This document shows, one piece after another, positions 2,131 to 64,000 of a stretch of DNA of 64,000 bases. The notes under the pieces were generated by a model. It searched no databases. It worked only from the letters and a program-made list of their open reading frames with translations, and was not told where the DNA came from. The stretch spans positions 13,251 through 77,250 of the forward strand of contig JAXGQJ010000009.1 in the NCBI GenBank assembly GCA_040766505.1. Reading direction: 5' to 3'. The position numbers and the translations under genes were made by a program. The DNA is from Clostridiales bacterium (GTDB lineage: Bacteria > Bacillota > Dehalobacteriia > UBA7702). Numbering within the stretch: the first letter of the stretch is position 1; every line of letters starts with the position of its first letter.

Positions 2131-2145
2131 CGGTTTCCTCGCTTC

Positions 2146-3030: not shown

Positions 3031-3044
3031 TGTTTACGATACCT

Positions 3045-4548: not shown

Positions 4549-4566
4549 ACTTTCAGTGAATCAGGT

Positions 4567-6264: not shown

Positions 6265-6265
6265 T

Positions 6266-7411: not shown

Positions 7412-7419
7412 TTCCGCCC

Positions 7420-18991: not shown

Positions 18992-19113
18992 ATAAAGTAT
19001 CCCTCCATAAAATCCTAAATTAAACAAATTTACCGTTTTACGTCTTTTCAGCTCTAGTATGGGCCTTCATGGAAGGTTTTATACGAAGCGCTTTCGGCCG
19101 TTTTTGGCGGCAA

Positions 19114-24088: not shown

Positions 24089-25510
24089 TTATAGCGCAAA
24101 TTTTCCTTCCCATTTGGCAAGGATCGCTTCCCGCTCCTTATCCAGCGGCGTTTCTTCGCCGCCGATCACCTCTAAGGCCCGTTCCCGCATTTTCAGCGCG
24201 ACGTCGCTCTCATCGAGGTTCTTCATGCGGCGGGAGAAAAGCGAAGGATACCAGACGGAACGGAAGTTTTCCAAGGTATGGGGGTGGGTCATATATTCGC
24301 CGCCATGGCCCACTTCCCGGATGGTATCGAGCGCAAAATCCTCCTCTTCCACCCCGACCCCGGCGCTGTAATGGCGATAGGATTCGATCAGTTCATTGGC
24401 CAAAACGACGAGTTCCGGGCTGACGCTATTGCAATGGTCCATCACACCGACATCGTGCACGATATTGGCCTTGCTGAGCAAGGTGGAAAAAATTTGATAG
24501 GATATTTCAGAAACTGCCTGCACATCGACGGTTTTCGCGTCGGTGCAGCCGGCGGTGCCATAGAAGGGCAAGCCATAAGAGGCGACGAGATCGGCATGGG
24601 CGGCGATGCCGAGATGAAATTCCGGCGCGGCATAGCTGCCCACCGTCGTTTTCATATCGAAAACCGAGGGCATCGCGCCATAGATGAAGGGAGCCCCTTC
24701 CGACGCCAACTGGGTGAGAACAAGCCCCGCCAGGGCCTCCGCATTGCATTGGGCATAGGTGGCAGCCTTCGACATCGGCGCGGTGCCGCCCATCATGCAA
24801 TAGGGCATATAGACGAAGGGGATCCGATTTTCGGCGCTGATCAGCACCTTTTCCGTGCTTTCCAAGGGGTGGGTCAGGGGCGGAATCGGTTCGCAATAGT
24901 TAAAGATAAACGGTTTGTCCTGCAATTTGTCGAGCCCGCCGGCGAAATCGGCGGCGATGGCGATGCAATCCCGGAGGGATTCGATATCATTGCTGGAAAA
25001 ATTGATGGTCTTTTTCAGATGGCGCAGCGTTTCGATGAAGGTGCGCTGGGTCTGCACCCGGGGGTCCACATCCGCCGTCATGCCGACGGAGAGAACAAAG
25101 GAAATGTGCTCCATCGCATTGGCGATTTTGCACATCGACGCGATGTCGCTGTGATAGAAATTCCGCACGACGCCCTTCTCCGGCTCCACATATTGCAATT
25201 GGTCCGAGTGGGTGCCGAAATAGACCGGGTTCTTTTCATCGATGTGCATGATCACATCGCCGTCGCGGTTGTACAGATCGAGAACCTTGGGCGCTTTTTC
25301 GATGGCCCAGGCCGTCAACTTTTCCGGAATGAAAACGAGGCCCTCATTGTCCACGTCGGCGCCGGCTTTTTTAAAGAGGTTGAGGGCCCGTTCACCGGTG
25401 ACCCGCATACCGGTTTTCGTCATGATCTCGATGCTTTTGTCATGGATTTTATTGATCTGATCGCGGTTTAAAACATGAAATTCGATATTTCTTACGATCT
25501 CTTTGCTCAT
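24089..25510 (-). CDS. MttB-superfamily (non-pyrrolysine) methyltransferase, probable quaternary-amine:corrinoid methyltransferase
   Basis: 473 aa, uninterrupted (no in-frame amber codon). Length and overall sequence are characteristic of trimethylamine-methyltransferase-family proteins. Adjacent to a BCCT transporter. Confidence 0.75.
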   Translation of the reverse strand: MSKEIVRNIEFHVLNRDQINKIHDKSIEIMTKTGMRVTGERALNLFKKAGADVDNEGLVFIPEKLTAWAIEKAPKVLDLYNRDGDVIMHIDEKNPVYFGTHSDQLQYVEPEKGVVRNFYHSDIASMCKIANAMEHISFVLSVGMTADVDPRVQTQRTFIETLRHLKKTINFSSNDIESLRDCIAIAADFAGGLDKLQDKPFIFNYCEPIPPLTHPLESTEKVLISAENRIPFVYMPYCMMGGTAPMSKAATYAQCNAEALAGLVLTQLASEGAPFIYGAMPSVFDMKTTVGSYAAPEFHLGIAAHADLVASYGLPFYGTAGCTDAKTVDVQAVSEISYQIFSTLLSKANIVHDVGVMDHCNSVSPELVVLANELIESYRHYSAGVGVEEEDFALDTIREVGHGGEYMTHPHTLENFRSVWYPSLFSRRMKNLDESDVALKMRERALEVIGGEETPLDKEREAILAKWEGKFAL

Positions 25511-25579
25511 CTTTCCTCCTCGGCGGGAAGGGAGCGCCGCGGGCCTCCCTTGCTGCCAACCTGAAGCGGGAACACCGCT

Positions 25580-26791
25580 TTATTTTGAAATGCCTTCCCG
25601 CAGATATGCGTTCATCTCTTCCTTCGTCATGTCGCCAAGGCCGAGATAATCCAGGGTATAGCCTTCCGCATAGAAATCCCTTCCAAATCGCGGATACCAG
25701 ATTGATCATCGAATCGATCACCGGGGTTTTGACACCGAACTTTTTCCCCAATTCATGGTAGAGGTGGCAGCCGACGGGGATGTCCTCGGTGATATAGCGG
25801 TTTTCCATCGTGAAGGGGCCGGTGCCGTATTGGATATAGTCTTGCTGGTCAAAGGGATTTTGTACTCTTTGCCCATATATTCCTGGCCGAGAACATTCTC
25901 TCTAGAGAAAAGTCTTCCTTATCGTAGGGCTGGATGCCGACGCCGACGGCCTGCGCCAATGCACATTCTTCCTGATAGAAGGTGTACTGCACCTGAGAAA
26001 TGGAGGGGCAATAGGCATGGGAATAGATGCTGTAATCGTATTTGTTTTCGCCGTAGATCACGCCCCAGTTTTCCATCGTGCTGACCCCCAGGATCGTGCC
26101 GGGGCAGTGGAGAACCGGGTTCACATTGCTGAAGCCGATGTCGAGAACGGTATCGCCGGCAACGGCGCCGTCGCCCTTCGTCACCGCGTCCATGGAAGGC
26201 AGACAATTGGCGCTCTCAATGAAGTCCGCCGTATCGCAGGCCGGCATCGCCGCGCCTCGCAGGGTGATGGCCCGGTAGTAAACGCGGATCTTAGGCAGGA
26301 CGACGCCGCCTTTGACCTCTACGCGGCTGCCATAGGTGGAGGAAGACCAACCGCCGATGATAACCTTTTTGTCACAGCCGGCTTCTTTCATCATCTTTCT
26401 TAAAAGCAGGCTGCCGTAATTGTCGGGGAACAGGTGGACAACTTGGCCGTCTTCCAGCGCGGGGATCAGCTTTTCGAAGAAGGGTTTGTAGCCCAAAGTG
26501 GTGGTGCCGATCACGATTAGCCGGCGCCTTTAACGGCTTGGGCCACGTCGGTGGTGACCAATTCCATCTGGGCTTGGCCATGCCGTTCAAAACCGTAGAG
26601 ATTTAATTGGTCGCCAAAAATTTGATGCCGGTTTCCTCAACGCCAAACAGGGTTTTGTCCGAGAAAGGGGGCAGATCGCAGATGCGCACTTTGGCGCCGC
26701 CTAAGGCGCAGTCGGCGGCGATCGCTTTTGATACGGCGCCGGCCCCCAAAACCGCGATGGGTTTCTCCCGTAGATAATTAAACTTGCTCAT
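25580..26791 (-). pseudogene. NAD(P)-dependent opine (octopine/nopaline) dehydrogenase family protein, at least 3 frameshifts
   Basis: N-terminal Rossmann KPIAVLGAGAVSKA (ORF 26603..26791), a middle part (25849..26514), and the octopine-DH motif RYITEDIPVGCHLYHELGKKFGVKTPVIDSMINL (25449..25808). Confidence 0.7.
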
Positions 26792-43176: not shown

Positions 43177-44499
43177 TTAAAACTTCGTCAGATACTGGTC
43201 TACCTCCGCGGGGTGACCGCCGAGCGATAGCTGGCCCACTCTTTCCGCTTCGCCTCGGTAAAACAGTTAAAGACATGGGTACCCAAAGCCCGGAAATGAC
43301 GACATTGTTCTTCAATTCCTTGATGGTGTCCCGGAGGCTTTCCGGCAAAGCTCGATTCCTTGCCCAGCCTTTCGGCGGGCTGAGGCATAGAGATTGTAAT
43401 TGCAGGCCGGCGGCGGCGCAATCCGGTTTTTGATGCCGTCGAGGCCGGCGGTGAGCATCACCGCTTCCGCCAGATAGGGTTGCAGCAGGATCGGGCTGCG
43501 CATCTCCACCCGGGTGGAATTGCCCCTTCTGGTGGGAATCCGCACCAAGGGGCTGCGGTTCTTCCCGGACCAGGCGATATAAACCGGCGCTTCATAACCG
43601 GAGATCAGCCGCTTATAGGAATTGACGGTGGGGTTGGTGATCGCCGTGATCGCTTTCGCGTGTTTCAGAAGGCCGCCGATATAAAAATAGGCGATCTCCG
43701 ACAGGCCGTCTTTGCCTTCGGGGTCATAGAAAACGTTTTCCCCATTCCGGCTGAGGCTTTGGTTCATATGCATACCGGAACCGGCGATGCCGGCAATGGG
43801 CTTAGGCATAAAGGAGGCGTGGAGCCCGTGCTGCTGGGCCACCATCCGCACAATCAGTTTGAAGGTTTGAATTTTATCGGCGGCCTGGAGGGCCCCGTCA
43901 TACTTGAAGTCGATCTCGTGCTGGCCCGGCGCGCATTCGTGGTGGGAGGCCTCGATCTCATAGCCCATCTCTTCCAAAGCGATGATCATATCGCGGCGGG
44001 CATTTTCCCCAGATCCACCGGGGAAAGGTCAAAATACGCGGCATTGTCGTGGGTGAGCAGCGTGGGCGCGCCACCGGCGTCGGTATGAAACAAAAAGAAT
44101 TCCGCTTCGGGGCCGACATGCATTTCCAGCCCCATTTCCGCCGCCGCGGCGATGGCCCGCTTCAACACATAGCGGGGGTCCCCTTCAAAGGGCCGGTCAT
44201 TGTGATCGTATACATCGCAGATTAGCCGCGCGATGCCCTCTTTCTGGTGTTCCCAGGGGAAATCTGCCATGTATTGTAATCCGGCTTTAGATACATATCC
44301 GATCTTCGATGCGCACAAAACCTTCCACCGAGGAACCGTCGAACATCATCTCGCCGTTGAGAGCTTTTCCACCAGCTGACGGGTAATGCCACATTTTTAA
44401 AATCCCGGAAGGCAATACATCGCTAAACTGCAAGCGGATAAAACGCACCTGGTGTTCCCGGGCGCTTGCCAAAATGTCTTCCCTGCCATATTGGCCCAT
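43177..44499 (-). pseudogene. glnA: type I glutamine synthetase, at least 3 frameshifts
   Basis: Pieces lie in ORFs 44287..44499, 43986..44318 and 43312..43989 ([41 protein letters not shown]). The tail ...EVDQYLTKF-stop ends at 43177. Confidence 0.85.
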
Positions 44500-51938: not shown

Positions 51939-53119
51939 TCAATTTACCTCTTTTTCCCCGGCGGCGGGAACAAAATTCCCCAAATCTCCATAGGTTTCCA
52001 CCACCAGCCGCACCGTCACGCCCTCCCCATTCCCGGCCACGGGGAAGGCTTCCTCCTTCACGATGCGGGCGCCGGCGGCGATCTTCGTTACCAGCATGGC
52101 GGAGCCCGTTCCAGCGCGATTTTGCGCTTCCTCCTCGCTGTATCCGCCTTCTTTCACCGCCAGTTCCTCCCGGTTTACCAATTCCAGCCGCAGAGGGCCC
52201 CAATGGCGGTTTGTTTTTTTCTCCTCATAGTCGACGAAGCCGTTCTCTTTCGCCCCCCAAAGCACATATTCCCGTTCCTTCCAATACAGGCCGATATAAT
52301 CCTGGTGGACACCGGTGGGCCGCGGCTTCAGCTCGCCGATGCCGCAGGAAGCCGTCGCTCGTACCAGACGGAACCGCGCACCAGCCCCTCAGGATGCACC
52401 GAATAAGCGGAACCTGTGCCGGGCTCCGCCGGTGTCACGGTGCCGGAGATGAGCACGTCACCGGCCCGCACCGCGACGCCGACTTCCACCTTCTTTTGCC
52501 CTTTCATCACAAATATTTCACGGACGACGCCGTCGCTTTTGGCGACGATGTCGCCGATCCCATCGTTTTCCGGCGGCGGTTTTTCCCGTTCCACCAGCCG
52601 GATTTGGACAAAAACACCGTCCTTCCGAAAGCCGACCCAGGCATATCCGTCGGTGCGCCGCAGAATGTCCTCCGCCGCCGCCTGCCAATCGAGCTCCCAG
52701 GCGAGGGCATAGGGCCGGATGCCATGGGCCGCCGAGATCGCGAGAATTTTGGCCTTCTCCTGGGCCGTCAGGGCTTTTTCCGTTTCGATTTCCACCTTGA
52801 GGATGCTTTGGGAGAACAGAACGAGCAGCAGAAAGCCGACGACGAGGGCGGATAAAAACGATTTCCTGCGGCGCAGGCGGCGCAGGGTGATCGGCAGCCC
52901 CTGTTTTTCTATAACTTCCAGGCTACAGCCGGCGGCCTTGGCCACATAGCGCACCGCCTTTAAGCTCCTGAGAGAAACATCGGCCAACAGCACGCCGCCG
53001 CCCAAATCCCTGAGGTTCCAAATTTCGATATTTCTTTGGGTGGCCAGGTTGATGAAGCGCTCCTGGGCGCCGCCGACGATGCGCAAACGGCAAAACCCGG
53101 CGAGACGGTGGCTGAACAT
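51939..53119 (-). pseudogene. yqfD: sporulation protein YqfD, one frameshift near 52330
   Basis: MFSHRLAGFCRLRIVGGAQERFINLATQRNIEIWNL..., one TM helix, and a C-terminal part continuing in ORF 51939..52265. GGAGG RBS before 53119. Confidence 0.75.
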
Positions 53120-53292
53120 AGCGTCCTCCTTCGCAAACAACGATGAAAGGGGGCAAAAAGCCAAAAGTCGGCTGAGGGGGCGGACGGAACCGATGCCGGT
53201 GCCGTTGGAGCGGGTCGGCGCCCGGAAGCCGACGGGTCGATCGGGCCGCACCGGCGGCACTTGGCTGCCGCAGCCGTTTCATCCGTATATCG

Positions 53293-53574
53293 TTAAATCA
53301 GATTGACAAAGGCGATGCTTTTAATTTTGCCTTCGACGACCAATTCATCGGGTTTTAGAACCGGCAGCGTCAGCCCTTCGCCGCAAATTTCCAGATTGCC
53401 GCCGCGATAGGCGATCTTGATCAGGTCCTCCTGATAGTGAAGGATGCCATTGTGGTTTTCCAGAAAGAGGCTGCGATCCCCGGTGAGGACAATCCGCGGC
53501 ATGTGGTAGACGATTTCGCCGGGAACCGACAGTACGTCGGTCATCACTTCGTTCCAGCGATCCTTTTTGCTCAT
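53293..53574 (-). CDS. yqfC: sporulation protein YqfC
   Basis: 93 aa: LSVPGEIVYHMPRIVLTGDRSLFLENHNGILHYQEDLI. Directly upstream of yqfD, as in Bacillus. Confidence 0.8.
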   Translation of the reverse strand: MSKKDRWNEVMTDVLSVPGEIVYHMPRIVLTGDRSLFLENHNGILHYQEDLIKIAYRGGNLEICGEGLTLPVLKPDELVVEGKIKSIAFVNLI

Positions 53575-53675
53575 TTTACGATCCCTCCCCCTTATCCTAT
53601 TCGGGAAACGGCCGCTTCATGCTTATGGCCCCAGGCGGGTGAAAAAGCCTGCGGCCTTCCCGGAGAGCGGGACGC

Positions 53676-53707
53676 AAAAAAACCCCGGGGTCCATCATGT
53701 GCCGGGG
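53676..53707 (-). terminator. rho-independent terminator of the GNAT gene
   Basis: CCCCGG-12 nt-CCGGGG stem followed by T7 on the minus strand. Confidence 0.55.
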
Positions 53708-53790
53708 CATCATGGGGAACCGGGGTTTTGAAACCGGGGCCTTGGCCGCCTACACTCGCCATACCGGGCAAAACTTTATCTCGCTGCCGG

Positions 53791-54249
53791 TTATAACGGT
53801 TTTACCACCGCGACCTCCTCGCATTCCGGGAATTTGGGACAGTCGATGCAATCCCGCCAAACCTTTTGGGGCAGGCTTTTGTGGGGTACTTCCTCATAGC
53901 CGTTCTTCCGAAAGAAGCCCGCCTGGTAGGTAAGGGCAAACAGCTTGGGCAAGCCCAGCTCCCGCGCTTCTTCCTCCAATTCGGCGACGATGCGGCTGCC
54001 GACGCCTTGCCGACTATAGGAATCGGTGACGACGAGGGAACGCACCTCCGCCAGGTCGTTCCAAAGAATGCGCAGGCCGCCCACGGCGACGATCTCGCCA
54101 TCGTCCTCCGCCACCACATATTCCCGCACATTTTCATAGAGGCTTTGCCGGGAACGGGCGAGCATGACGCCTTTGGTGGAATGGGACATGATCAATTTAT
54201 GAATGTCCTCCACATCTTCAATTTTTGCTTTCCGGTAGACGATGCCCAC
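53791..54249 (-). CDS. GNAT family N-acetyltransferase (ArgA-like short form)
   Basis: 152 aa with the acetyl-CoA motif RQGVGSRIVAELE and a C-terminal Cys cluster, CIDCPKFPEC. Confidence 0.7.
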   Translation of the reverse strand: MGIVYRKAKIEDVEDIHKLIMSHSTKGVMLARSRQSLYENVREYVVAEDDGEIVAVGGLRILWNDLAEVRSLVVTDSYSRQGVGSRIVAELEEEARELGLPKLFALTYQAGFFRKNGYEEVPHKSLPQKVWRDCIDCPKFPECEEVAVVKPL

Positions 54250-54461: not shown

Positions 54462-54884
54462 TTACTTTTTCAGCAGGGAAACGAGCTTCCAAAGGGCGGC
54501 GAAGAAGAGGATGGCCGGTAAAACCGGCGGGATCGGGGCAAAGAAGCCGAAAAAAGCGGGGAGAACGCCCATTTGCAGCAAGATGACCGCGCCAAACAGC
54601 TGCTGGGGCAGCAAGATGAGGCCGAGATACAGCAAAGAGAACAGCAGCGCCGCCACGAGGGAACCGCGCCGTTTTGGCTTTTCCCGGCAAAGGAGCAGGC
54701 TGAGATAGGCGACAACCAGAAAAGCCAAGGCCAAAACCGCGAGATAAGCGGCGGAAAAGGCCCCCCATTGTTTGCCCTGCCAGACCGGGCCGAGGCCAAT
54801 CTCATTGATGACCCGGTAGGCATAGAGGAAGAGCAGCGGAAAAAAGGCGAACAGCAGCGCCTTGAGATAGAGGGGAAGTTTCAA
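54462..54884 (-). CDS. hypothetical polytopic membrane protein
   Basis: Four or five hydrophobic helices. TTG start after an AAGGAG RBS. Last ORF of the Mo-enzyme-associated operon; no recognisable motif. Confidence 0.45.
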   Translation of the reverse strand: MKLPLYLKALLFAFFPLLFLYAYRVINEIGLGPVWQGKQWGAFSAAYLAVLALAFLVVAYLSLLLCREKPKRRGSLVAALLFSLLYLGLILLPQQLFGAVILLQMGVLPAFFGFFAPIPPVLPAILFFAALWKLVSLLKK

Positions 54885-54959
54885 AACGATCTCCTTTCCA
54901 CAGTCAGATGTCCATTGGCGGCATAGCGCCGCCATATCCGCTTTGGCCGCTTATTCGGA

Positions 54960-56094
54960 TCATCCAAATGATCCGGGATCGGCCGGGCCGTTTCCGGGGG
55001 ATTCCGACGCGGCGGCGGCGGTTTTTTCGGCATCGACGCCGCAGGCGGCGATTTGGGCCGCAACGGCCCTGGCCTTCGCTTCCCGTTCCCGCAGGGCCGG
55101 CAGATCGCCGAAGCGTTCATAAGCGGCGGCGAAACGGCCGGCGATGCCGACGAAACGATCCCCCATGACCATCTTATCGGCGAGAAAAAGTAGATCCTTT
55201 TCGGCCAGGATTTTTTCGGATCGATGCCGTCCCATATGGGCGCCGACAAGAACCGCCAATTCCGGCTGGCCGACGGCGAGGAGCCGCCCTTTGGCGACGG
55301 CGGCGTGGCCCCGTTCCCCTTGGCGAGGTCGTGAACGCGGCCGGCGGCATACACCGCCGCCCCGTCGAAGGAATGGCCCCGGCGGTTCAAAGCTCTCTGC
55401 CAGGCCGAGGCGGCGGCGGCCACCCGGTCGCAATGGGCTTGGAGTTGGGGGGGAAGGGGGGCCCGGGCCAACAGGTCCGCCACGAAAGCGAGGGGATCCC
55501 ACCGGGGGCAGGCGGCCGCCAGCTCCCGATATTCCTCTGGGGTGTCCATATCCCGCAGGATATGGGGATCCGGCACCGCCACCTCCTCGCCGCGATAGCG
55601 GCCCAGCAGGCCCCGGAATCCGTCGGGCCAGTCGCCGCGGAGAACCTCCCGGCCGATGGCGGCGGAAACCAGGATGGGATGGCCCCGTTCCCCGGCATAG
55701 ACGGGGTAGAAGAGCGGGCCGCCGCTTTCGGCATAGCGCCGCCACAAACGGCCCGGGGTATCGGCGGCGACCCCGGCAATGTCGGCGGGGTGCAAAAAAA
55801 ACATTTGGCGTTCCGGCGGCAGGCTAGCGATGCCGCGGCGGAGGGAAGAGAGCATGCCCTGCCGATAACCGGCATTTTCCACGAAGGTCACCTCTTCCCG
55901 GAAAGAGTTTGGCGGCAATCTCCTCCCGCCGGTGGCCCAAAACCACCCGGATATCGTCAATGCCGGCGCCGAGATAAGCGCCGATGACCCGATCCAGCGC
56001 ATACCGCCCCAATGGCAGCAAAGGCTTCACTCCCCCCATCCGAGAGGAAAGCGCCGGCGGCCAGGATCAGAGCGGCGGCCCGTTCAGCGCCCAT
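54960..56094 (-). pseudogene. MocA/MobA-like molybdenum-cofactor nucleotidyltransferase fused to an HD-domain, at least 2 frameshifts
   Basis: MGAERAAALILAAG..SSRMGGVKPLLPLG (NTP_transf_3 motif), ...FLHPADIAGV..., then an HD domain (AHCDRV...GRVHDLAK...) whose end is in ORF 54960..55745. Confidence 0.7.
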
Positions 56095-57132
56095 CGAAGC
56101 ATGCCCCAAAGCCCGAACGGCGATCAGTTCCCCGGCGATGCTGACGGCGATTTCCTCCGGCGTTTCGGCGCCGATTTTGAGTACCGCTGATCGGCGCATA
56201 GCAGCGGGCGATTTCCGCATCGCTGAACCTTCCTCCTGCAAGGCGGTAAAGACGGCCTTTGTCTTCTTGCGGCTGCCGATCATGCCGATATAGCGCGCCC
56301 CCGTTTTCAAACAGGCCGCCAGCACTTCCTTATCATGAAGGTGGCCCCGGGTCAGAATCACGCAATAGGTATCCGAGAGATCCCCCAAACCCTGAAATAG
56401 ATCGTCTTGAAAAGAGCCGAGCACCCGTAGCCATCGGCGCCGGGAAAGCGCCACCACGGCAACCTCCCGGTCGTCCATGACGATGACCTCGAAGCCGACG
56501 CTTTTTGCCACCGGGGCCAGTTTTTCACCGACATGGTCGGCGCCAAAGACCAATACCCGGCCGTCGGCCCCCAGCGGTTGCAGGTACATCCGGCCGTTTC
56601 CGATAGGGTGAATACGTCATAGCCCTTCATCTTATGAAGCAGCCCCGGTTCCCCCAGGAAAGCGGCCGACGCTGCCGTCGGCCAGGATCAGGCATTGGCG
56701 GCAGGCCATGCCCTGGCCGGATTTTGCCCCGGTTCCGGCAAGTAAAAGCCGTGCCAACCTTTTGCGCGGTGGATCACATCCTCCAATGCCTGATACACCT
56801 CCCGGCAGGCCATATCGCCGCCGTTCACATAGTCGATCCAGATTTCCACCTCGCCACCGCAGGCCATGCCTTCTTCCGCCGCGGAACCGGCTTTCATCTC
56901 AAATTCCAGCAAATGGGGACAGGCGGTTTCCAGCACTTCCGCCCCCGCCGCCCGGGCCGTCGCCTCCACCAGGCCGCCGCCGATGGTGCCGGCGATGGTG
57001 CCGTCGGGCCGGATCAGCATCTGGGCGCCGGTATGCCGCGGCGTATGCCCTTTTGCGCCACGATGGTGGCCAGGGCGAAGGAATCGCCCTCTGAAGCAGT
57101 TCCTGGGCGGCGGTGATGATTTCTCTCGTCAT
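56084..57132 (-). pseudogene. XdhC/CoxI family molybdoenzyme maturation protein, about 3 frameshifts
   Basis: MTREIITAAQELLQRGDSFALATIV, then MLIRPDGTIAGTIGGG (ORF 56688..57020), then the Rossmann part VLVFGADHVGEKLA...YIGMIGSRKK (ORF 55957..56589). Confidence 0.75.
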
Positions 57133-58436
57133 GGTTCTCTCTTCCTTTCCGTCTTGGGTGGTTTGCGCCGGTCGTCGATGGTACGTTTCCAGGTACCCCG
57201 GTTTTCAAAGCCGGTCAGCGGCGTGAAGCGGAAAGCTCCAGCCGCCAGCCGCTCCCCGGCAGCAGAGTGCCGCGACGGCGGCCCGCACCGCCGCCCCGGA
57301 CGGGGCACGAATACCGGCGACGTCCAGCAACAGCGCCTTTTCCTCGATGGCGGCGCGAAAATCCAGTATTTCCGGCAGGGGGAACAAAGCCCTTCATCCA
57401 ACTGCGGCTGGGAGAGGGCAAAGCCTTCTTCAAGGTCACGATGCCCCGCAGCCGGCCGGAAACCGGGCCAGGCGGCGCAAAAGCTGCCGCAGGAAGGCGA
57501 CGTCAGAAAACGGCTGTCCCCGGTGCGATAGCGGATAAAGGGCGCCTTGCCGGGTTAAGGTGCTGAACACCACCTCTCCCTCTTCTCCGGCGGGCAAGGC
57601 CCGGCCGGTGGCGGGATCGACAATTTCCAGCAGCAGATCCATTTCCCGCAGATGATAACCGTCCCGGGCGGCGCATTCCACGCCGCCGCCGAGGCCCGTT
57701 TCCGTCGTGCCATAATGGGCAAAAACCCGGCATTGCCACAGCGATTCCAGTACGCGGCAGAGGGATTTCGGCACATAATCGGCGCTTAAAAGCACCGTAT
57801 CGATATGGGCCCGCTCCCGATTGCCCCTTTCCCGGCCATAGCGGGCCAGGGCCAAAACCTGGTTGGGAATCCCCACGATGCAGCGGGCCCGGGAGGACAG
57901 CAGCGCCCGATAGGCGGCGTCCAGGTCGGCGACGGGGCCAAAGGCCACGCTGCCAATTTCTTGGCGGGCCAGGCCCTTCGCCAACAGATCGCCGATGCTG
58001 CCGGGCCGCGCGCCGGGCATCAGGATCAAGACCGGGCCCGGCGGATCCACCAGCGTGCGCATTCCGTGGGCAAAAAAATCTATCGTCAATTCCTGGTCCG
58101 CCCCGGTGAAAAAGACCCGTTTGGGGCCTCCTTCGGTGCCGGAGCTTTCCAGCGTAACGATGCGCTGGATCTCCTTGGCCAACGCAGCCAGGACAAAGGA
58201 TCGGCCCGCAGCATGTCGGCATCGGTAAAGGGCAGCGCCGCCAAATCCCCGGGGGTTCGCAGCTCCTCCAGGGCGATGGCGGCGAGATGGCGGCGATAAA
58301 AGGCGCTATGGGATCGCGCATAGGCGACGGTGCGGCGCAAACGCCGCAACTGCTCCGCTTCCAGAGCGGCGGCGTCGGCGGCTTTGCTTCCCGCGACGAT
58401 CCAGGCCTCCAGTGGGGTGACGGGCAGCGTCATCAT
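57129..58436 (-). pseudogene. PaaK/F390-synthetase-like adenylate-forming ligase, several frameshifts
   Basis: MMTLPVTPLEAW...AFYRRHL (ORF 58086..58436), the AMP motif LESSGTEGGPKRVFF, and YGTTETG (ORF 57436..58182). The C-terminal domain is scattered over frames down to 57129. Confidence 0.7.
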
Positions 58437-58873
58437 TTTTTTGCGCTCTCTTCTCTCATTTCTCTCATTTCTCTCATTTCATCCAGATCAAAACCGTTTT
58501 CAAACAGGATCTCTTTCGCTTGCAGGTAAACGTTTTCGATCAGGCCGGGGCAGACTTGGACGCGGTTTTGCATGTCCCCTTTTAAGATTTCCAGGCAGTC
58601 GACATTGCCATAGGCCTCTTGAAACCATTCTGACAGTTCCGGCACCATTTTATCCCTGGCCAATTCTTTATTAAAAAGCCCCAGCATGCAAGCGCCGCCG
58701 GAAAGCGCGCCGCAAAGCTTGCCGATCCGCATACCGCCGCAAAGGGTGGCAACGGCGTCCACCATCTGGGCGTTCTCTTCGCCCCTGGCTTCGAGGCCCA
58801 TCGCCACCAAAACCTGGGTACAGCACAAACCGCTTTCCACCAATGCGCGAACCCTTTTTATATCGTCGCTCAT
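58433..58873 (-). CDS. C_GCAxxG_C_C family (putative redox-active) protein
   Basis: SGLCCTQVLV, LCGGM...KLCGALSGGACMLG, NVDCLEI..VCPGLI. ATGA-type overlaps at both ends. Tail EMREMREMREE. Confidence 0.75.
   Translation of the reverse strand: MSDDIKRVRALVESGLCCTQVLVAMGLEARGEENAQMVDAVATLCGGMRIGKLCGALSGGACMLGLFNKELARDKMVPELSEWFQEAYGNVDCLEILKGDMQNRVQVCPGLIENVYLQAKEILFENGFDLDEMREMREMREESAKK
58451..58477. repeat. perfect 9-bp x3 tandem repeat (encodes MRE-MRE-MRE)
   Basis: TTCTCTCAT repeated at 58451-58459, 58460-58468 and 58469-58477. Confidence 0.9.
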
Positions 58874-59550
58874 CTTTTTTCCTCCTTTTCGGCGGCGATC
58901 AGGCAATATCCTGCTTTTCCGCCGCCTTTCTCACATTTTTCATCCCATCTTTTAGCGTTTTTTCCCCCCAGAAAAGCAGCGGGGGGAATGCCGTTCCAAA
59001 CCATTTCCGCCGCCAGAGCGGCCAAAACGCCGCTTTGGTCGGAAAAATGCAGGAGCCGGAAGGGGGCAAGCAAGGCCTCCAGCTCCTGCCGGTTTCGCAG
59101 CATCTGCCCTTGGCAGCCGGTGACGGATCCCGCCCGGCTGTAAAGGTCGGCGATGACGGCGACGCCGCCGGGCTTTAAAACCCGGCGCATTTCCGCCACC
59201 ACCGCTTTGGCGTCGGCGACGAGGGACAGAACGCATTCCGCCAAAACCCCGTCAAAAACACCGTCGTCAAAGGGCAGGCGTTCCCCGACGGCGGCAATCA
59301 GTTCCAAACCGGGGTGGAGCTCCCCGGCCCTGGCCCGCAGCAGCGGCGAGGGCTCGACGCCGACGGCCTCATAACCATAGCTTTCCCGCAACAGCGCCAC
59401 GGTGGCTCCATCCCCGGCGCCTATGTCGAGAATACGGGCGGCGGCGGGAAAGGCGGCCAAGGCCAGGGCCTTCTCGGTCAGCGCCCTGCCGCCGGGGTGG
59501 AGCTTCCCTCCCAGCGCCGCTTTCGTGGCGGCGTCCTCATACCGTTTCAT
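58870..59550 (-). CDS. class I SAM-dependent methyltransferase with a Cys-containing C-terminal extension
   Basis: ILDIGAGDGATV (motif I), LKPGGVAVIADL, and a C-terminal part with GCQGQ and KCEKGGGKAGYCLI. Its stop overlaps the next start. Confidence 0.75.
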   Translation of the reverse strand: MKRYEDAATKAALGGKLHPGGRALTEKALALAAFPAAARILDIGAGDGATVALLRESYGYEAVGVEPSPLLRARAGELHPGLELIAAVGERLPFDDGVFDGVLAECVLSLVADAKAVVAEMRRVLKPGGVAVIADLYSRAGSVTGCQGQMLRNRQELEALLAPFRLLHFSDQSGVLAALAAEMVWNGIPPAAFLGGKNAKRWDEKCEKGGGKAGYCLIAAEKEEKR

Positions 59551-59554
59551 AGGC

Positions 59555-60898
59555 TTATTTCCTTCGGTACAGGCCTTGCCCTGCCTCATTCGTCACTTGA
59601 TAAGCGCAGAAGGGAACCAGCCTTTCATCGGCGGTCAGCACCTGCACCCGGCACTTTTGCAGCCGATCCACATCAAGGTTCCAAACGTCTTGAAAGGCCA
59701 TGCCCGTCAAAGTGAAACCGTCCTCCCTGAGATGCCGCAGCACCCGGTCAAAACCGTCCTCTTCTCCGCAGCAACCGCCGCCGTTTTCCGGCAGCGTCCA
59801 TTTGTTCAAAACGAAATCCCGGTCTTTGGCGACGATCTCTTCCGGCGTGGGGCAGCAGCAGCCGCAGCTTTCCGCCGGTTTCATCGCCAAGATGCCGTCG
59901 CCCTCCCGCAGGAAAGCGCCATAAAAGCAGCAGAGGGGATGCCCCGTCTGCAAGGGGGCGAGATCCTGCCGCCTGATCTTGCCGCCGGTCTGTTTTTCCA
60001 GCTCGATCATCACCGTATCGAGGGTGACCCGGCCCTCCTCCGGCGGCGGCCCGGGATAGCGGCCAAAATAACTGACCGGCTGGAAGTGGATGCCCCGGAC
60101 ATGGGGCATATGATCGAGCATGAATTGGAACATCGCGCCGATTTCATGGACATTGACGCCGGGGGTCACCGTCGGCACCAAGGTGACCGGCAACCCGGCG
60201 GCGGCGCAATGCTCCACCGCCTGCTTCTTATTGGCGAAAAGGGGTTCCCCCCTCAATTGCCGATAGATCGCGTCGTCAATGCCGTCAAATTGCATAAAGA
60301 CGACGGACAAGCCCGCCTCCCGCAGCGTTTTCGCATAGGAGGGATCCTCCCCCAGCCTGCGGCCATTGCTGTTCAATTGGATATAGGTGAAGCCTTTTTC
60401 CCGGCCCATGGCGATGATGGCGGGGAGATCCTCCCGCACCGTCGGCTCGCCGCCGGAAATCTGGATATTGAAGGGCCGCTCTTCTCCCCATTCCCGCAGC
60501 CGGTCATACCATTGGGCGATCCGCTCCAAAGAGGGGTCGGCGGCGGGGCTTTCATTGGCCGAGGCGAAGCAGAGCGGGCACTTTTGATTGCAGCGCATCG
60601 TTACGTCCAACAGCACGCAACAGGCGGTCTGTTTATGGTTGGGGCAAAGGCCGCAATCGAAGGGGCAGCCCTTGTCCGTTTCGGTTTGGGGCAATCGCCC
60701 GGGAATATTGGTGGTTTCCACCATCCATTGGGAAAAGGAAGCGGCGTCCTCCCAGACCAAGGTGGTGTAGGCGCCGTGTTCCGGGCATTCCTTCACCAGA
60801 TAGACCCGATTGCCGTCCTGCCGGTAGGTGGCGGGAACCCGTTTCAAGCAGCGGGGGCAAAGGCTTTCGGTCGCCGAAATTGTCTTAGCATCGCTCAT
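59555..60898 (-). CDS. radical SAM enzyme with an N-terminal zinc-ribbon and a large C-terminal domain
   Basis: CPRC...CPEHG ribbon and CNQKCPLC (CxxxCxxC). GGEPT. Cys-rich CGCCC and GGCCG patches. Tail MAFQDVWNLDVDRLQKCRV. 447 aa from M56 of the track ORF. Confidence 0.8.
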   Translation of the reverse strand: MSDAKTISATESLCPRCLKRVPATYRQDGNRVYLVKECPEHGAYTTLVWEDAASFSQWMVETTNIPGRLPQTETDKGCPFDCGLCPNHKQTACCVLLDVTMRCNQKCPLCFASANESPAADPSLERIAQWYDRLREWGEERPFNIQISGGEPTVREDLPAIIAMGREKGFTYIQLNSNGRRLGEDPSYAKTLREAGLSVVFMQFDGIDDAIYRQLRGEPLFANKKQAVEHCAAAGLPVTLVPTVTPGVNVHEIGAMFQFMLDHMPHVRGIHFQPVSYFGRYPGPPPEEGRVTLDTVMIELEKQTGGKIRRQDLAPLQTGHPLCCFYGAFLREGDGILAMKPAESCGCCCPTPEEIVAKDRDFVLNKWTLPENGGGCCGEEDGFDRVLRHLREDGFTLTGMAFQDVWNLDVDRLQKCRVQVLTADERLVPFCAYQVTNEAGQGLYRRK

Positions 60899-60984
60899 TC
60901 GCTCATACCCACACTTTCTGTTCCGATTTAGAGCGGCGCGGCGCAAAACCGGGAAAACCCGTCTTTGGGCCGGTCGCCGGGGCT

Positions 60985-61176
60985 TTATTTGTCTTCCAAG
61001 GTGGCTTCGACCTGGGCGACCTTTCCTTTCACCAAATCTTCGGAGATATAGACCTGGCCGCATTGGGGGCAGACCGGCAGATCCGCCGGAAATTCATAGT
61101 CGAGATAGCGCAAGAAAATCTTGCGCTCCTCCAAGGCCACATTGCAAAGATCGCAAATCGCTTGTTCCGTCGTCAT
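60985..61176 (-). CDS. 63-aa zinc-ribbon (CxxC...CxxC) protein
   Basis: MTTEQAICDLCNVALEERKIFLRYLDYEFPADLPVCPQCGQVYISEDL.... GGAGGAG RBS. ATGA overlap with the stop of the 767-aa gene. Confidence 0.6.
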   Translation of the reverse strand: MTTEQAICDLCNVALEERKIFLRYLDYEFPADLPVCPQCGQVYISEDLVKGKVAQVEATLEDK

Positions 61177-63476
61177 CGCTTCTCCTCCTGAATCTGGAGG
61201 CGGTGGCAATAGACATTGCGGACGCGGTAGCCATCCCCCTCCGGCACATACTCCACCCAATAGGTGATGATGCCGATTTGCAAATGGGCCAGAAAACCGT
61301 CTCCCCGCCGCAGCCGGCGGCGGCTTTTTTCCGCCGCGGCGATCACCTTTTGCACATCTTCGGCAAGGATCAGGAGATCGTCCATCTTTTTCTGCACCTC
61401 TTCGGACAGGAGCAGGCAAATCTTTTCATATTCCCGTTTTTCCATCTTGGTTTCTACCCCCCATTCCTCCCGCAACAACCGCTCCTTCAGCCGCACCCGG
61501 TTTTGCCGCCGGTCGCCCAAAGACGGCGCTTTTCGCGGCTTACCGTCGCCAAAGGCAAGATCCAACAGATGGCAACTGTTCTTCCCCTGGCTGGCAAAAA
61601 CATCGCGGCAATTGGCGCAATAGCAGATATAGTCGTGGGGGCTGGCGGCGGCGCGCTTGGCCCGGATTTCCTTCGTCAGATCCGGGTTCGCGGCATAGGT
61701 CAGCCCACCATAGGTGCAGCATTGGCTTCTTTCGCCGTGATAAGGCAGTTCCTCGACACGGTAACCGCTCTTTTCCAACAGCTTTCGGACAGCATGGCGG
61801 GTCTTGGCCTCCCGCCGGGCGGAACAGGGGTCAAAAACCGTAACGGTTCGCCCCTCTCCCGGCTTCAGGCCGATCTCAGCCCCTTCGGCGGCAAGATGGT
61901 CGATCAGCGAAGAGAATCGCGCCGCCGGGAGATACTGTTTTAACTGCTTCATACAAGAAGGGCAAGCGAGAATCAGCTCCGGCCTTCCCTTTGCCTCCCA
62001 ATCGGCCTCGATTGCCGCCAGCACTTCTTCCATCCGGTCGAGACGCCCGGCCCAGGCCGCCGGCGCGCCGCAGCAGGAAAGCGACAGGGCCACCCGGTCT
62101 TCCCCCAAGCGGCGCTTCAAAAAGCGATAGCTCTCCACCACCACATCGGGATCGGAGGCCCCCAGCTGGCAGCCGGGGAAAAAGAGATATGGCGCCGCCG
62201 CCGCTCCCGCCGGCAAGCGGGAAAGAAAAGCGTCCTCCCCCTGGGTGAAGGCCATATCCCGCAGCCAGAAATCGTGAAAGGTTTCGGGCATTTTGCCCTT
62301 TTCCACCATCAAAACCCTGGCCCCCTGGCAAACGCCGCCCATATCGACGCCTACATGGCAAACCTCCTTGCAGAGGCCACAGAGATTGCAGGAGTTGATA
62401 AAGCGGTTGGAGGCGCTGGGGGCGATGCCCTTGATGGTGTTCAGGCTTTGCACCACATTGCCGATGTATTGCTTCGGCACATCGCGGAAATGCGCCAAAA
62501 ATTCGCAGCCTTTCAAACAATTGTCGCATTTGCATTGCAGGCAGCGGCCGGCTTCGGCCAAAAGCTCCCCCTTATCATAGCCTTCCCCGTCCTGGGGGAC
62601 GATGGCGGCGGTTGGCTCCACCCCCCGGGTTTCGGTATAGAGCTTCGTTTCCACCCGGCCTTCATATTCCCTGTCCAGCACCAGCGAGGACTTTTTTAAA
62701 AACCGCTCGATGGATTTCGCGGCGCGAAAACCGTCGGCGATGAGCTGGCTGGAGGAAACCTCCTCTCCGGTACCGCGAACCAGCGTGCCGCCTACAAAGA
62801 CGCCGGGCCGGGCGCTTTCAAGGGAAATGGGGTGAAAGGCGGGACGCCCCCCTTCCCCTAAGGGCAGCGGAAATCCGGCGGCGCCGGTGGCGATGAAAAA
62901 CACGTCCCCCTCCACCTCGCCAATGTCCTTCACCTCACGGTTGAAGTGGAAACGGACGTCCTCATCGGCGGGAAGGCCGGAAAATGTTTTTTCCAAAAGC
63001 TCCGGCGGCAGCAGCGCCGGATCCGCCTGCCAAAGGGAACCGCCCAGCCGGTCGCTCTTTTCATACAGCTCCACAGGATAGCCCTTGCGGGATAGGTTGA
63101 TTGCGCAGCTCAATCCCGTTAAGCCGCCGCCGATCACGGCGACCAGCCCTTCCTTTTCCGGTATCGAAAACCGGGGCAGCGGGCGTTTTTTGGCATGGTC
63201 GCAAAGCCCCCGTTCGATGCCGCGCAGATCGATGGCTTCGCCCAAATCGCGGCGAATGCAATCTTGGCGGCAGGGGGCATTGCAGGTGCGGCTAACGATT
63301 TCGGGGAACAATACCTGGCTGCGATAGGCCTTATAGTCACCGTTGAAATCTTCCCGCATAATTTTTCCGATCATGCCGCGAACGTCGACATGGAGGGGGC
63401 AGCCATTGGTGCAAAACACCACTTCCTCAGCGACGCATTTCGGGGCTTCTTTGATAATATCGTTTTCGTTCAGCAT
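61173..63476 (-). CDS. 767-aa multidomain flavo-iron-sulfur oxidoreductase (GltD-like FAD/NAD(P) module + 2x[4Fe-4S] + two CCG/HdrD-GlpC-like domains + unknown C-terminal domain)
   Basis: VAVIGGGLTGLSCA dinucleotide fold. CLQCKCDNCLKGC and CNLCGLCKEVC ferredoxin motifs. FFPGCQLG and FDPCSAR...CCTYGG CCG-type motifs. Intact. Confidence 0.75.
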   Translation of the reverse strand: MLNENDIIKEAPKCVAEEVVFCTNGCPLHVDVRGMIGKIMREDFNGDYKAYRSQVLFPEIVSRTCNAPCRQDCIRRDLGEAIDLRGIERGLCDHAKKRPLPRFSIPEKEGLVAVIGGGLTGLSCAINLSRKGYPVELYEKSDRLGGSLWQADPALLPPELLEKTFSGLPADEDVRFHFNREVKDIGEVEGDVFFIATGAAGFPLPLGEGGRPAFHPISLESARPGVFVGGTLVRGTGEEVSSSQLIADGFRAAKSIERFLKKSSLVLDREYEGRVETKLYTETRGVEPTAAIVPQDGEGYDKGELLAEAGRCLQCKCDNCLKGCEFLAHFRDVPKQYIGNVVQSLNTIKGIAPSASNRFINSCNLCGLCKEVCHVGVDMGGVCQGARVLMVEKGKMPETFHDFWLRDMAFTQGEDAFLSRLPAGAAAAPYLFFPGCQLGASDPDVVVESYRFLKRRLGEDRVALSLSCCGAPAAWAGRLDRMEEVLAAIEADWEAKGRPELILACPSCMKQLKQYLPAARFSSLIDHLAAEGAEIGLKPGEGRTVTVFDPCSARREAKTRHAVRKLLEKSGYRVEELPYHGERSQCCTYGGLTYAANPDLTKEIRAKRAAASPHDYICYCANCRDVFASQGKNSCHLLDLAFGDGKPRKAPSLGDRRQNRVRLKERLLREEWGVETKMEKREYEKICLLLSEEVQKKMDDLLILAEDVQKVIAAAEKSRRRLRRGDGFLAHLQIGIITYWVEYVPEGDGYRVRNVYCHRLQIQEEKR

Positions 63477-63591: not shown

Positions 63592-64000
63592 TTATTTCAG
63601 AACCACCAGGGGATTCCGCTTGATGTCCTCGATCTTTTCGTGGAGGTCGCAGCCGAGATAATACTTCTTAGGCTTGACCTGTTCGCCGCGGGCCAATTGG
63701 TCCATGGCGGCTTTCAGCCGTTCCGGGGTGGCGGGCAATTCATAGGTGCGAACGCCGGTGGCATTGTAGACGGCGTTCAGAACCGCCGCGTGGGGCGCCG
63801 AGAGATACAGCTCGGAGCAGCCGACGGAACCGTGGGGGCCGGTGGGCCGGTGGGATTCCACATAGTCGATGTCGAGCTTATCGGGAATGTCGTCAATATA
63901 GGGGAAGCCGCAGGCGACGAGGGAATTGTGCTTCTGCACATCGTCATAATCCTCACTCAGGGCGAGGCCGATGCCTTGGGCGAGGCCGCCATAGGCCTGG
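63592..64000 (-). CDS. xanthine-dehydrogenase/aldehyde-oxidoreductase family molybdopterin-binding protein, C-terminal end only (5-prime part beyond the window)
   Basis: ...GLAQGIGLALSEDYDDVQKHNSLVACGFPYIDDIPDKLDIDYVESHRPTGPHGSVGCSELYLSAPHAAVLNAVYNATG, typical of the Ald_Xan_dh_C2 tail. Confidence 0.75.
   Translation of the reverse strand, partial: QAYGGLAQGIGLALSEDYDDVQKHNSLVACGFPYIDDIPDKLDIDYVESHRPTGPHGSVGCSELYLSAPHAAVLNAVYNATGVRTYELPATPERLKAAMDQLARGEQVKPKKYYLGCDLHEKIEDIKRNPLVVLK

Follow-up and report, generated by a model that had tools for sequence, protein, structure and literature searches.

A TrsS radical SAM gene quartet in a Bacillota genome forms the middle of a nine-gene molybdenum aldehyde oxidoreductase operon

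What do a radical SAM enzyme, a class I methyltransferase, a C_GCAxxG_C_C protein and an adenylate-forming ligase do together when their genes are chained on one strand? We analysed a 64,000-nucleotide stretch (the window) of a spore-forming Bacillota genome, for which a sequence-only reading had described such a quartet as enzymes typical of peptide or small-molecule tailoring. All four genes were found on the minus strand where that reading had placed them, and each matches its own curated NCBIfam family: TrsS, DVU_1556, DVU_1555 and DVU_1553. The radical SAM protein (447 aa; 59555..60898) is an all-cysteine form of TrsS that scored 571 bits against NF045646 (cut-off 490) and covers profile positions 2-441 of 441 with zero frameshifts. 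The methyltransferase (226 aa; 58870..59550) scored 188.5 bits against NF045667 (cut-off 155), and the C_GCAxxG_C_C protein (146 aa; 58433..58873; Pfam PF09719) scored 111.5 bits against NF045669 (cut-off 103). Judged by these alignments, the three family assignments are far beyond chance. The PaaK-like ligase (57129..58436) was given its true start (58436) and true stop (57129) by the earlier reading, but no single open reading frame spans it: the gene is broken into 58086-58436, 57436-58182 and further pieces, with fragments matching NF045666 profile positions 1-82 and 87-296. When an intact 432-aa orthologue was aligned with frameshifts allowed, at least eight frame changes were counted, and the corrected protein scored 397.5 bits (cut-off 300).

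The four-gene boundary proved too narrow. On the 5' side of the quartet lie a molybdopterin-dependent aldehyde oxidoreductase (AOR), a flavo-iron-sulfur dicluster oxidoreductase and a small zinc-ribbon protein, and on the 3' side an XdhC-type maturation factor and a MocA-like NTP transferase, all on the minus strand. The AOR gene (MOP/AOR type; 63592..64000) continues past the window edge. Its 135-aa 3'-end fragment matches NF045668 (E = 1.8e-43; profile positions 806-904 of 905) and shares 81% identity with the C-terminal end of the 945-aa AOR in a relative (L081). The pyridine nucleotide-disulfide oxidoreductase/dicluster-binding flavo-iron-sulfur protein (61173..63476; henceforth the dicluster protein) covers NF045663 over its full length at 828 bits (cut-off 530) and has a GltD-like N-terminus, a 4Fe-4S dicluster and two CCG domains (Pfam Fer4_20, NAD_binding_8, Fer4_17 and CCG). 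The DVU_1557-family zinc-ribbon protein (62 aa; DUF7479; 60985..61176) scored 79.5 bits against NF045645 (cut-off 60; Pfam PF24292). The XdhC-family AOR maturation factor (56085..57132, 3' end approximate) and the DVU_1551-family NTP transferase (54960..56123, 5' end approximate) carry at least nine and at least six frameshifts, respectively. After correction they scored 320 bits against NF045664 (cut-off 350; profile positions 2-345 of 346) and 294.6 bits against NF045665 (cut-off 315; positions 2-354 of 359), and uncorrected XdhC fragments match the same model. The NTP transferase has a C-terminal HD domain, and its orthologue in L081 combines NTP_transf_3 with HD.

All nine genes therefore match models specific to the TrsS neighbourhood, of the Desulfovibrio vulgaris DVU_1551-DVU_1559 type (NF045645, NF045646 and NF045663 to NF045669). 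The genes lie on one strand, and their scores reach or come close to the curated cut-offs; six exceed the cut-off unedited and the ligase does so after frame correction. The quartet is thus the middle of a catalogued nine-gene operon around a molybdenum AOR and no free-standing unit; operon structure and family membership are demonstrated. We consider it probable that the quartet sits at the centre of the TrsS neighbourhood, a conserved one-strand operon of anaerobes, and that it serves a redox module. The locus is an ordinary new member of an already named neighbourhood, not a novel tailoring pathway. The statement that no known pathway has this enzyme combination was mistaken, since equivalog-type NCBIfam models named after DVU_1553, DVU_1555, DVU_1556 and TrsS had already been built for the neighbourhood. 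RefSeq homologues carry the name 'radical SAM (seleno)protein TrsS', and a 2026 selenoprotein review includes the family and gives credit to Haft & Tolstoy 2025 (mSystems 10:e0141724). In the literature covered, which did not include the paper credited with naming TrsS, we found no biochemical or genetic tests of any quartet gene.

The three junctions within the quartet read as previously described: a 4-nt gap between TrsS and methyltransferase (59550/59555, TAA-GCCT-ATG), an ATGA overlap between methyltransferase and C_GCAxxG_C_C protein (58870-58873) and an ATGATGA overlap between the latter and the ligase (58433-58436). Two further ATGA overlaps lie outside it, where the DVU_1557 start overlaps the stop of the dicluster protein (61173-61176) and where the XdhC ATG overlaps the ligase stop (57129-57132). 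The 4-nt overlap is the commonest junction type in bacterial operons, so these junctions indicate operon membership and not the 'obligate' co-translation that had been read from them.

Synteny in other genomes, whose loss had earlier been named as refuting, is kept across 54 well-flanked loci from other species of many phyla. The full set of nine occurs in 42 of the 54, the same partners as in the window. TrsS is accompanied by the dicluster protein and DVU_1557 in all 54 loci, by the methyltransferase in 53, the ligase in 52, the C_GCAxxG_C_C protein and the AOR in 49 each, the NTP transferase in 46 and XdhC in 45, always on the same strand and in at least five gene orders. Fusions join methyltransferase to TrsS (L074, P0042, P0113), TrsS to ligase (L050, one MAG) and dicluster protein to DVU_1557 (three loci: L026, L061, L079). 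These comparisons indicate that the quartet is a real, co-inherited functional unit, as its chaining had suggested. The window differs from the typical neighbourhood in its all-cysteine TrsS and its TrsS-first quartet order. The usual order is methyltransferase-C_GCAxxG_C_C-TrsS-ligase, whereas the order here, TrsS-methyltransferase-C_GCAxxG_C_C-ligase, is common only to the closest relatives (L081-L084; TrsS 74% identical), which, unlike the window, have an NTPase_1 gene between DVU_1557 and TrsS. There is no in-frame TGA in trsS here or in its 80 best relatives. Thirteen same-strand families recur, each in at least 15 of 80 loci; they comprise the cluster genes, short fragments and six identified others, among them a MoeA-like MoCF-domain protein, ModB, an ABC ATPase, an iron alcohol dehydrogenase and a sigma-54 regulator. 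The AOR is not adjacent in five well-flanked loci, and L009 and L013, for example, keep the dicluster protein, DVU_1557, methyltransferase, TrsS and ligase alone. Given these five loci, the target of the methyltransferase-TrsS-ligase trio may be the flavoprotein, or something else again, instead of the AOR. In L013 an LplA gene adjoins the ligase, a single occurrence.

In the window the reading frames of the ligase, XdhC and the NTP transferase are broken, which counts against the proposed function here; intact genes occur in L081-L084 (432, 352 and 377 aa, respectively). We judge it unlikely that the operon is decaying, with these three genes as genuine pseudogenes and the system non-functional in this genome. 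Such decay would fit the crowding of 23 frame changes within 54.9-58.2 kb against zero in the adjoining 5.3 kb, as well as the split methyltransferase and NTP-transferase genes, with IS elements nearby, of the close relative L084. However, the corrected frames contain zero in-frame stops, and the corrected genes are 61-67% identical to those of L081, inside the range of intact genes (53-85%). Two other genes of the window, for glutamine synthetase and an octopine-dehydrogenase-like protein, are likewise split, most frameshift sites lie at short homopolymers, and 16 of the 23 changes are single-base deletions. Indel errors in assembly leave such a pattern, and the frameshifts are most likely of that origin.

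Structure prediction and a Foldseek search, proposed earlier for the radical SAM protein, related it to the archaeal tetraether lipid synthase GDGT-MAS (Tes; Methanocaldococcus jannaschii MJ0619). The AlphaFold2 model (pLDDT 87) aligned to 7TOM with a TM-score of 0.81, and the sequence matched 7TOL at E = 2e-87; on this predicted structure, TrsS is a close structural relative. It keeps the overall fold, the rubredoxin-like site (C-x2-C-x20-C-x2-H: C14, C17, C38, H41, including the CPRC motif), the N-terminal cluster ligands (C78, C82, C85, H88), the radical SAM CxxxCxxC (C103/C107/C110), the labile-Met counterpart (M400) and the C-terminal cluster residues C416 and C431. Bacterial homologues of Tes have been suggested to make branched GDGTs (PMC8941075; PMC9433317), which would suit a bacterial tetraether or membrane-spanning lipid synthase, orthologous to Tes/GDGT-MAS, whose neighbours tailor lipids. 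We regard this role for TrsS as very unlikely. TrsS scored 351 bits on the Tes equivalog model (cut-off 450) against 571 on its own, and Val420 replaces Tyr459, for which strict conservation across 1,000 archaeal homologues is reported (PMC9433317). From its radical SAM core to its C-terminal cluster motif TrsS has a Cys-rich segment of 69 aa, against 113 aa in GDGT-MAS. Moreover, the setting of this bacterial gene is a molybdoenzyme operon and not a lipid one, and the identified recurrent neighbour families include no lipid-synthesis gene.

In that middle segment C323 and C347-C348 are conserved, the latter within CGCCC (345-349). The GGCCG patch (376-377) and the Cys residues of the methyltransferase tail, both previously listed as features, are present but not conserved across homologues. 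The quartet does contain the kinds of enzyme that typify tailoring, and a conserved small open reading frame, DVU_1557, lies directly upstream, with four Cys and a C-terminal LE[DE]K-stop at least 90% conserved in 76 homologues. We nevertheless find it very unlikely that the quartet is a RiPP or small-molecule cassette in which a peptide or acid precursor is processed by a radical SAM maturase together with the methyltransferase and an adenylating enzyme; nothing supports tailoring of peptides or natural products in particular. DVU_1557 always follows the dicluster protein, to which it can be fused, and TrsS reaches the cut-off of no SPASM/twitch maturase model (best scores 36-62 bits against cut-offs of 265-650). 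The identified recurrent families of the 80 loci include no peptidase and no natural-product-type exporter, and conservation across phyla together with the frequent AOR fits housekeeping operons rather than secondary metabolism.

The ligase shares the adenylate-forming fold of PaaK (2Y27, 2Y4N; aligned over residues 20-427), and the corrected protein shows, by eye, an SSGTEGGPKR phosphate-binding loop and a C-terminal GTWKR lysine motif. NCBIfam names its family 'AMP-dependent CoA ligase'. An anaerobic degradation pathway could accordingly be imagined in which the AOR turns an aldehyde into an acid, the ligase makes the CoA thioester, and the remaining quartet proteins act on the same metabolite. 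The full-length alignment with phenylacetate-CoA ligase 2Y27 would agree, as would an iron alcohol dehydrogenase near 22 loci and a sigma-54 regulator near 17. We judge this unlikely: the ligase belongs to its own DVU_1553 family and scores 95-110 bits on PaaK equivalog models, far under their cut-offs (646-700). Its fusion partner is TrsS and not the AOR, and it is retained in L009 and L013; riboswitches and dedicated cofactor-maturation genes fit an enzyme-assembly operon.

For the favoured reading, service to a redox module, we infer the following chemistry. The MOP-type AOR would oxidise aldehydes and, given strict co-occurrence and fusion, pass electrons to the dicluster/CCG protein and its partner DVU_1557, while XdhC and the MocA-like transferase would make and insert a cytosine-dinucleotide molybdenum cofactor. 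XdhC/MocA-type maturation of such molybdoenzymes is exemplified by E. coli PaoD and MocA, and the corresponding genes lie directly 3' of the quartet; none of the four kinds of quartet protein is known from such systems. The quartet may form one ATP- and SAM-dependent modification line that matures a cofactor, prosthetic group or protein partner of the module, and not a peptide or secondary metabolite. In it the ligase would adenylate a carboxylate. TrsS, with its GDGT-MAS-like metal sites, might abstract hydrogen from an unactivated carbon, the radical being captured at the C-terminal cluster or the CC motif. The methyltransferase (conserved SAM motif D42-G44-G46-G48, and E105-C106), whose best outside matches are ArsM-type enzymes, could methylate a soft heteroatom; the Cys-rich C_GCAxxG_C_C protein, in which C18, C54-G55, G59, C93 and C108 are conserved, would also belong to the line. 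Split systems for sulfur insertion or methylthiolation and for attaching prosthetic groups (LipA/LplA, MiaB/RimO, diphthamide Dph2/5/6) likewise bring together radical SAM enzymes with auxiliary clusters, SAM methylation and ATP-dependent ligases, an analogy only, as the quartet is related to them no further than superfamily level. Crystallography is not known to have revealed any but the ordinary cofactor in the AOR-type enzyme of Desulfovibrio gigas, which counts against the proposal, and we know of no modified cofactor that would require the quartet enzymes. Counting for it are links to molybdenum metabolism in relatives, namely the MoeA-like protein, ModB with the ABC ATPase, the iron alcohol dehydrogenase and Moco riboswitches upstream of two loci (L003, L007).

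The window cluster belongs to a named, biochemically uncharacterised gene neighbourhood, here in rearranged gene order. NCBIfam holds neighbourhood-specific models for all nine genes of the operon. On the minus strand, the radical SAM enzyme TrsS (60898 to 59555; 447 aa) scored 571.2 bits on NF045646 against a cut-off of 490, covering profile positions 2-441 of 441. It is followed on the same strand by the methyltransferase (59550 to 58870; 188.5 bits against a cut-off of 155 on NF045667, the DVU_1556 family) and the C_GCAxxG_C_C gene (58873 to 58433; 111.5 bits against a cut-off of 103 on NF045669, the DVU_1555 family), in whose product C18, C54-G55, G59, C93 and C108 are conserved in the homologue alignment. 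The ligase, also minus and starting at 58436, reached 397.5 bits on NF045666, the DVU_1553 family (cut-off 300; positions 2-331 of 331), once its reading frame was corrected; its raw fragments scored 298.1 and 52.1 bits, both below the cut-off of 300. Upstream of TrsS lie the minus-strand gene for the 62-aa zinc-ribbon protein DVU_1557 (60985-61176; 79.5 bits on NF045645, cut-off 60), the flavo-iron-sulfur oxidoreductase, or dicluster flavoprotein (828 bits on NF045663, cut-off 530), and, at the window end, a partial gene for the C-terminus of NF045668, the molybdopterin-dependent aldehyde oxidoreductase (AOR). The DVU_1553, DVU_1555, DVU_1556, DVU_1557, dicluster-protein and AOR genes all share the strand of TrsS. 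XdhC and the MocA-like NTP transferase, scored after frame correction, stayed below their cut-offs (320 bits against 350 on NF045664 and about 295 bits against 315 on NF045665).

A sequence-only reading had reported no known pathway with this combination of enzymes. That claim fails because models and names for the gene set exist already and have spread through RefSeq annotation. In Enterocloster bolteae and Anaerovorax odorimutans, among others, RefSeq lists homologues as "radical SAM (seleno)protein TrsS", and a 2026 review includes TrsS in its selenoprotein table, with credit to Haft & Tolstoy 2025. Searching the literature for the DVU_1551-1559 locus tags turned up nothing beyond proteomics tables in which the AOR appears. 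A D. vulgaris RB-TnSeq paper was set aside as evidence on the locus; it concerns the tungsten AOR DVU1179 instead. An exact sequence look-up of the window TrsS gave no record. With the gene set already catalogued the observation is ordinary, and its interest lies in the biochemistry of the neighbourhood, where a relative of the archaeal tetraether synthase, widespread in bacteria, is locked to a molybdenum AOR and an Hdr-like flavoprotein.

The quartet of TrsS, methyltransferase, C_GCAxxG_C_C protein and ligase is real, although its boundaries had been drawn too narrowly and one of its genes is broken in the assembly. Read directly from the sequence, the three junctions are those first described (TAA-GCCT-ATG, ATGA and ATGATGA), and additional ATGA overlaps lie outside the quartet, between the flavoprotein and DVU_1557 genes (61173-61176) and between ligase and XdhC (57129-57132). 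The ligase had been taken as a single ORF, and it is in fact split into 58086-58436, 57436-58182 and further pieces; tblastn with intact orthologues likewise revealed frame changes. We therefore wrote a frameshift-tolerant protein-to-DNA alignment for the purpose, using as reference the intact genes of the closest relative (L081, TrsS 74% identical). It located at least 8 frame changes in the ligase (against the 432-aa L081 orthologue), at least 9 in XdhC and at least 6 in the NTP transferase, a total of 23 within 54881-58200, plus one in yqfD (at 52358). The AOR fragment, flavoprotein, DVU_1557, TrsS, methyltransferase, C_GCAxxG_C_C, GNAT and yabP genes had none, so that the distribution is patchy and the adjoining genes are clean. 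The ligase stop originally proposed, 57129, is the end of the frame-corrected gene.

The three corrected frames lack in-frame stops and are 61-67% identical to L081, within the 53-85% spanned by the intact genes. Single-base deletions account for 16 of the 23 frame changes, most of the sites fall at short homopolymers within the stretch of highest GC content, and a glutamine synthetase (43315-44345) and an octopine-dehydrogenase-like gene (25452-26529) are likewise split. On these grounds the frameshifts are very probably patchy indel errors of the assembly and not gene decay; that they mark genuine pseudogenes in this organism is unlikely, a judgement made independently of the other readings. 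The pattern points to errors of local assembly or polishing, so genes called on this contig should be treated with caution.

We assessed the conservation of the neighbourhood by scanning one genome per species. This yielded 266 relatives, of which the best 80 loci were taken; neighbour presence was scored by tblastn with the window proteins, and counts were made on the 54 loci whose flanks extended 7 kb or more upstream and 6 kb or more downstream. The genes are co-inherited. The flavoprotein and DVU_1557 were beside TrsS in 54/54 loci each, the methyltransferase in 53/54, the ligase in 52/54, the C_GCAxxG_C_C protein and the AOR in 49/54 each, the NTP transferase in 46/54 and XdhC in 45/54, and all nine genes occurred together in 42/54. 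Throughout the 54 loci the cluster genes share one strand and their order varies. TrsS is present in the Desulfobacterota, Bacillota and Fusobacteriota and in gut Clostridia, Enterocloster bolteae among them. Among the loci compared, the window order, with TrsS before the methyltransferase, is common only to the closest relatives (L081-L084). These four carry an additional NTPase_1 (PF03266) gene of 171-176 aa between DVU_1557 and TrsS (9490-10020 in L081); the window lacks it, the DVU_1557-TrsS gap being 86 nt (60899-60984).

Several of these genes are also fused. Methyltransferase and TrsS occupy single stop-free frames in L074, P0042 and P0113, TrsS and the ligase share one stop-free frame in a Gaiellales MAG (L050, 86-3190), and the flavoprotein is fused to DVU_1557 in three loci. 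Fused frames from MAGs may be either true fusions or lost stop codons. Taken as they stand, the fusions link the genes within two sets, methyltransferase/TrsS/ligase and flavoprotein/DVU_1557. Further recurrent neighbours were a MoeA-like protein, ModB, an ABC ATPase, an iron alcohol dehydrogenase and a sigma-54 regulator. All-against-all ORF clustering was restricted to same-strand clusters because conserved antisense shadow ORFs muddied it.

TrsS was compared with GDGT-MAS, the archaeal tetraether synthase of known structure. The two align with E = 2e-87 (7TOL; residues 9-325 and 395-436), and the structure prediction and Foldseek search proposed at the outset gave an AlphaFold2 model with pLDDT 87 and a TM-score of 0.81 to 7TOM. 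Metal ligands published for GDGT-MAS (PMC9433317) were transferred through the alignment, in which the chain index is shifted by 20 relative to the published numbering. By this transfer TrsS retains the rubredoxin-like site (C14, C17, C38, H41), the ligands of the N-terminal cluster (C78, C82, C85, H88) and the radical SAM cluster motif, and the labile Met439 of GDGT-MAS corresponds to M400, together with C416 and C431. By alignment and model, the window protein shares the overall fold and the motifs of all four metallocofactor sites. The residues C14, C17, C38, H41, C78, C82, C85 and H88, as well as C103, C107, C110, C231, C323, M400, C416 and C431, are invariant in 34 homologues, the CC motif C347/C348 is at least 90% conserved, and the window protein has every one of them. 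The CPRC, CxxxCxxC, CGCCC and GGCCG features first noted in the protein are all there; the GGCCG patch is unconserved in the 34-homologue alignment, and the Cys noted in the methyltransferase tail shows no conservation among homologues.

The family name allows selenocysteine, and the window TrsS is nevertheless all-Cys, with no in-frame TGA. A selenocysteine codon was also sought in TrsS of the best 80 genomic relatives, and an in-frame stop was found in 0/80. One short match (P0071), considered as a protein truncated at such a codon, proved to be a cut-off fragment.

A lipid-synthase role has been suggested for bacterial Tes homologues (PMC8941075), whereas the report of the GDGT-MAS structure expressly treats what the bacterial homologues do as "unknown" (PMC9433317). 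The shared fold would suit lipid synthesis by the TrsS cluster. On the Tes/GDGT-MAS model NF045702, however, the window TrsS scored 351.1 bits against a cut-off of 450, with matching residues 10-347 only. Tyr459, reported to be invariant in 1,000 homologues from archaea (PMC9433317), faces Val420 in the HMMER alignment, and the segment ahead of the C-terminal motif has 113 aa in GDGT-MAS and 69 aa, Cys-rich, in TrsS. TrsS forms a family that is sister to Tes and is not itself a Tes, and we give lipid synthesis almost no credence.

The sequence-only reading had compared the quartet with enzymes of small-molecule or peptide tailoring and had found no precursor-peptide ORF. A conserved small ORF does exist, DVU_1557, the only one at the locus. 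Almost every one of 76 homologues from different phyla has its four Cys and ends in LE[DE]K-stop, and this tail could be a docking or attachment site. Its constant place behind the flavoprotein, together with the occasional fusion of the two, speaks for a subunit or partner of that protein rather than a RiPP precursor. SPASM/twitch maturase models (PqqE, mycofactocin, ScmE, WgkB, StsB) gave TrsS 36-62 bits against cut-offs of 265-650. Natural-product tailoring, to which a radical SAM enzyme beside a conserved small ORF might point, is accordingly highly unlikely. PDB sequence searches with DVU_1557 and the C_GCAxxG_C_C protein returned matches no better than chance. Single-sequence AlphaFold models of DVU_1557 were unreliable (five models, 46 to 78 pLDDT) and were left unused.

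Synteny, fusions and residues together direct attention to the AOR cofactor and to the module of flavoprotein and DVU_1557, and away from lipids and peptides. We consider it somewhat probable that AOR, flavoprotein and DVU_1557 form a catalytic and electron-transfer core, that XdhC and the MocA-like enzyme serve maturation of the molybdenum cofactor, and that methyltransferase, TrsS, ligase and C_GCAxxG_C_C protein make up one ATP- and SAM-dependent modification line serving the core. An adjacent AOR is absent in 5/54 loci, where the flavoprotein, DVU_1557, methyltransferase and TrsS are retained in 5/5 and the ligase in 4/5. A catabolic route from aldehyde to acid to CoA would employ the AOR and a PaaK-like ligase; the corrected window ligase scored only 95.1 and 110.6 bits on the PaaK models TIGR02155 and NF041878 (cut-offs 646 and 700), and we regard this route as improbable, if less so than the pseudogene reading of the frameshifts. 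A DUF5714 gene adjoins the flavoprotein or TrsS in three of the five AOR-less loci (L009, L013, L045). The Sporomusa acidovorans locus (L013) has a lipoate-protein ligase gene directly 3' of the ligase; it was rejected as evidence for function because it is confined to that single locus.

A more specific version of the modification line, in which the methyltransferase-TrsS-ligase trio builds a thiol- or selenol-type prosthetic group, protein-bound or small-molecule, for the dicluster/CCG flavoprotein module, is a long shot. In one form of it the ligase would acylate DVU_1557 at its invariant LE[DE]K tail. Next, TrsS would bond an unactivated carbon to S or Se by way of its C-terminal cluster or its CC/CU motif, with the carbon-sulfur intermediate chemistry known from GDGT-MAS. 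The product would be methylated by the ArsM-like enzyme, whose likeness to ArsM (arsenite/arsinothricin methyltransferase) is limited to the class I fold (55 and 45 bits against cut-offs of 240-263). If true, aldehyde oxidation would have a "swinging arm" of a lipoyl- or methylthio-like kind, and bacterial Tes homologues their first assigned function.

Regulatory signals were sought around the operon. Of 11 loci scanned, two have Moco riboswitches (RF01055) upstream of the AOR cluster and on the strand of the operon, one in Desulforadius (L003, 2070-2187) and two in Anoxynatronum (L007, 1867-1985 and 16694-16810); the other nine had none. An Rfam scan of window 50-64 kb gave no match, the operon 5' end falling beyond the window, and promoter and terminator sites in 53.5-64 kb were no commoner than in shuffled sequence. 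The sporulation genes yqfD, yabP and spoVT (52328-54249 and 18431-19066) border the operon, as they do in L081, and mark the organism as a spore-forming member of the Bacillota. Elsewhere, a minus-strand gene at 24092-25579 encodes an MttB-superfamily methyltransferase in an uninterrupted frame; it lacks an in-frame amber codon and is therefore probably a non-pyrrolysine member. Finally, positions 2001-8000 have a GC content of 43-46% against about 58% elsewhere, and contain glycosyltransferase-like ORFs and rhamnose-nucleotide ones (RmlA-like [18 protein letters not shown]); the region looks like a surface-polysaccharide locus gained horizontally.
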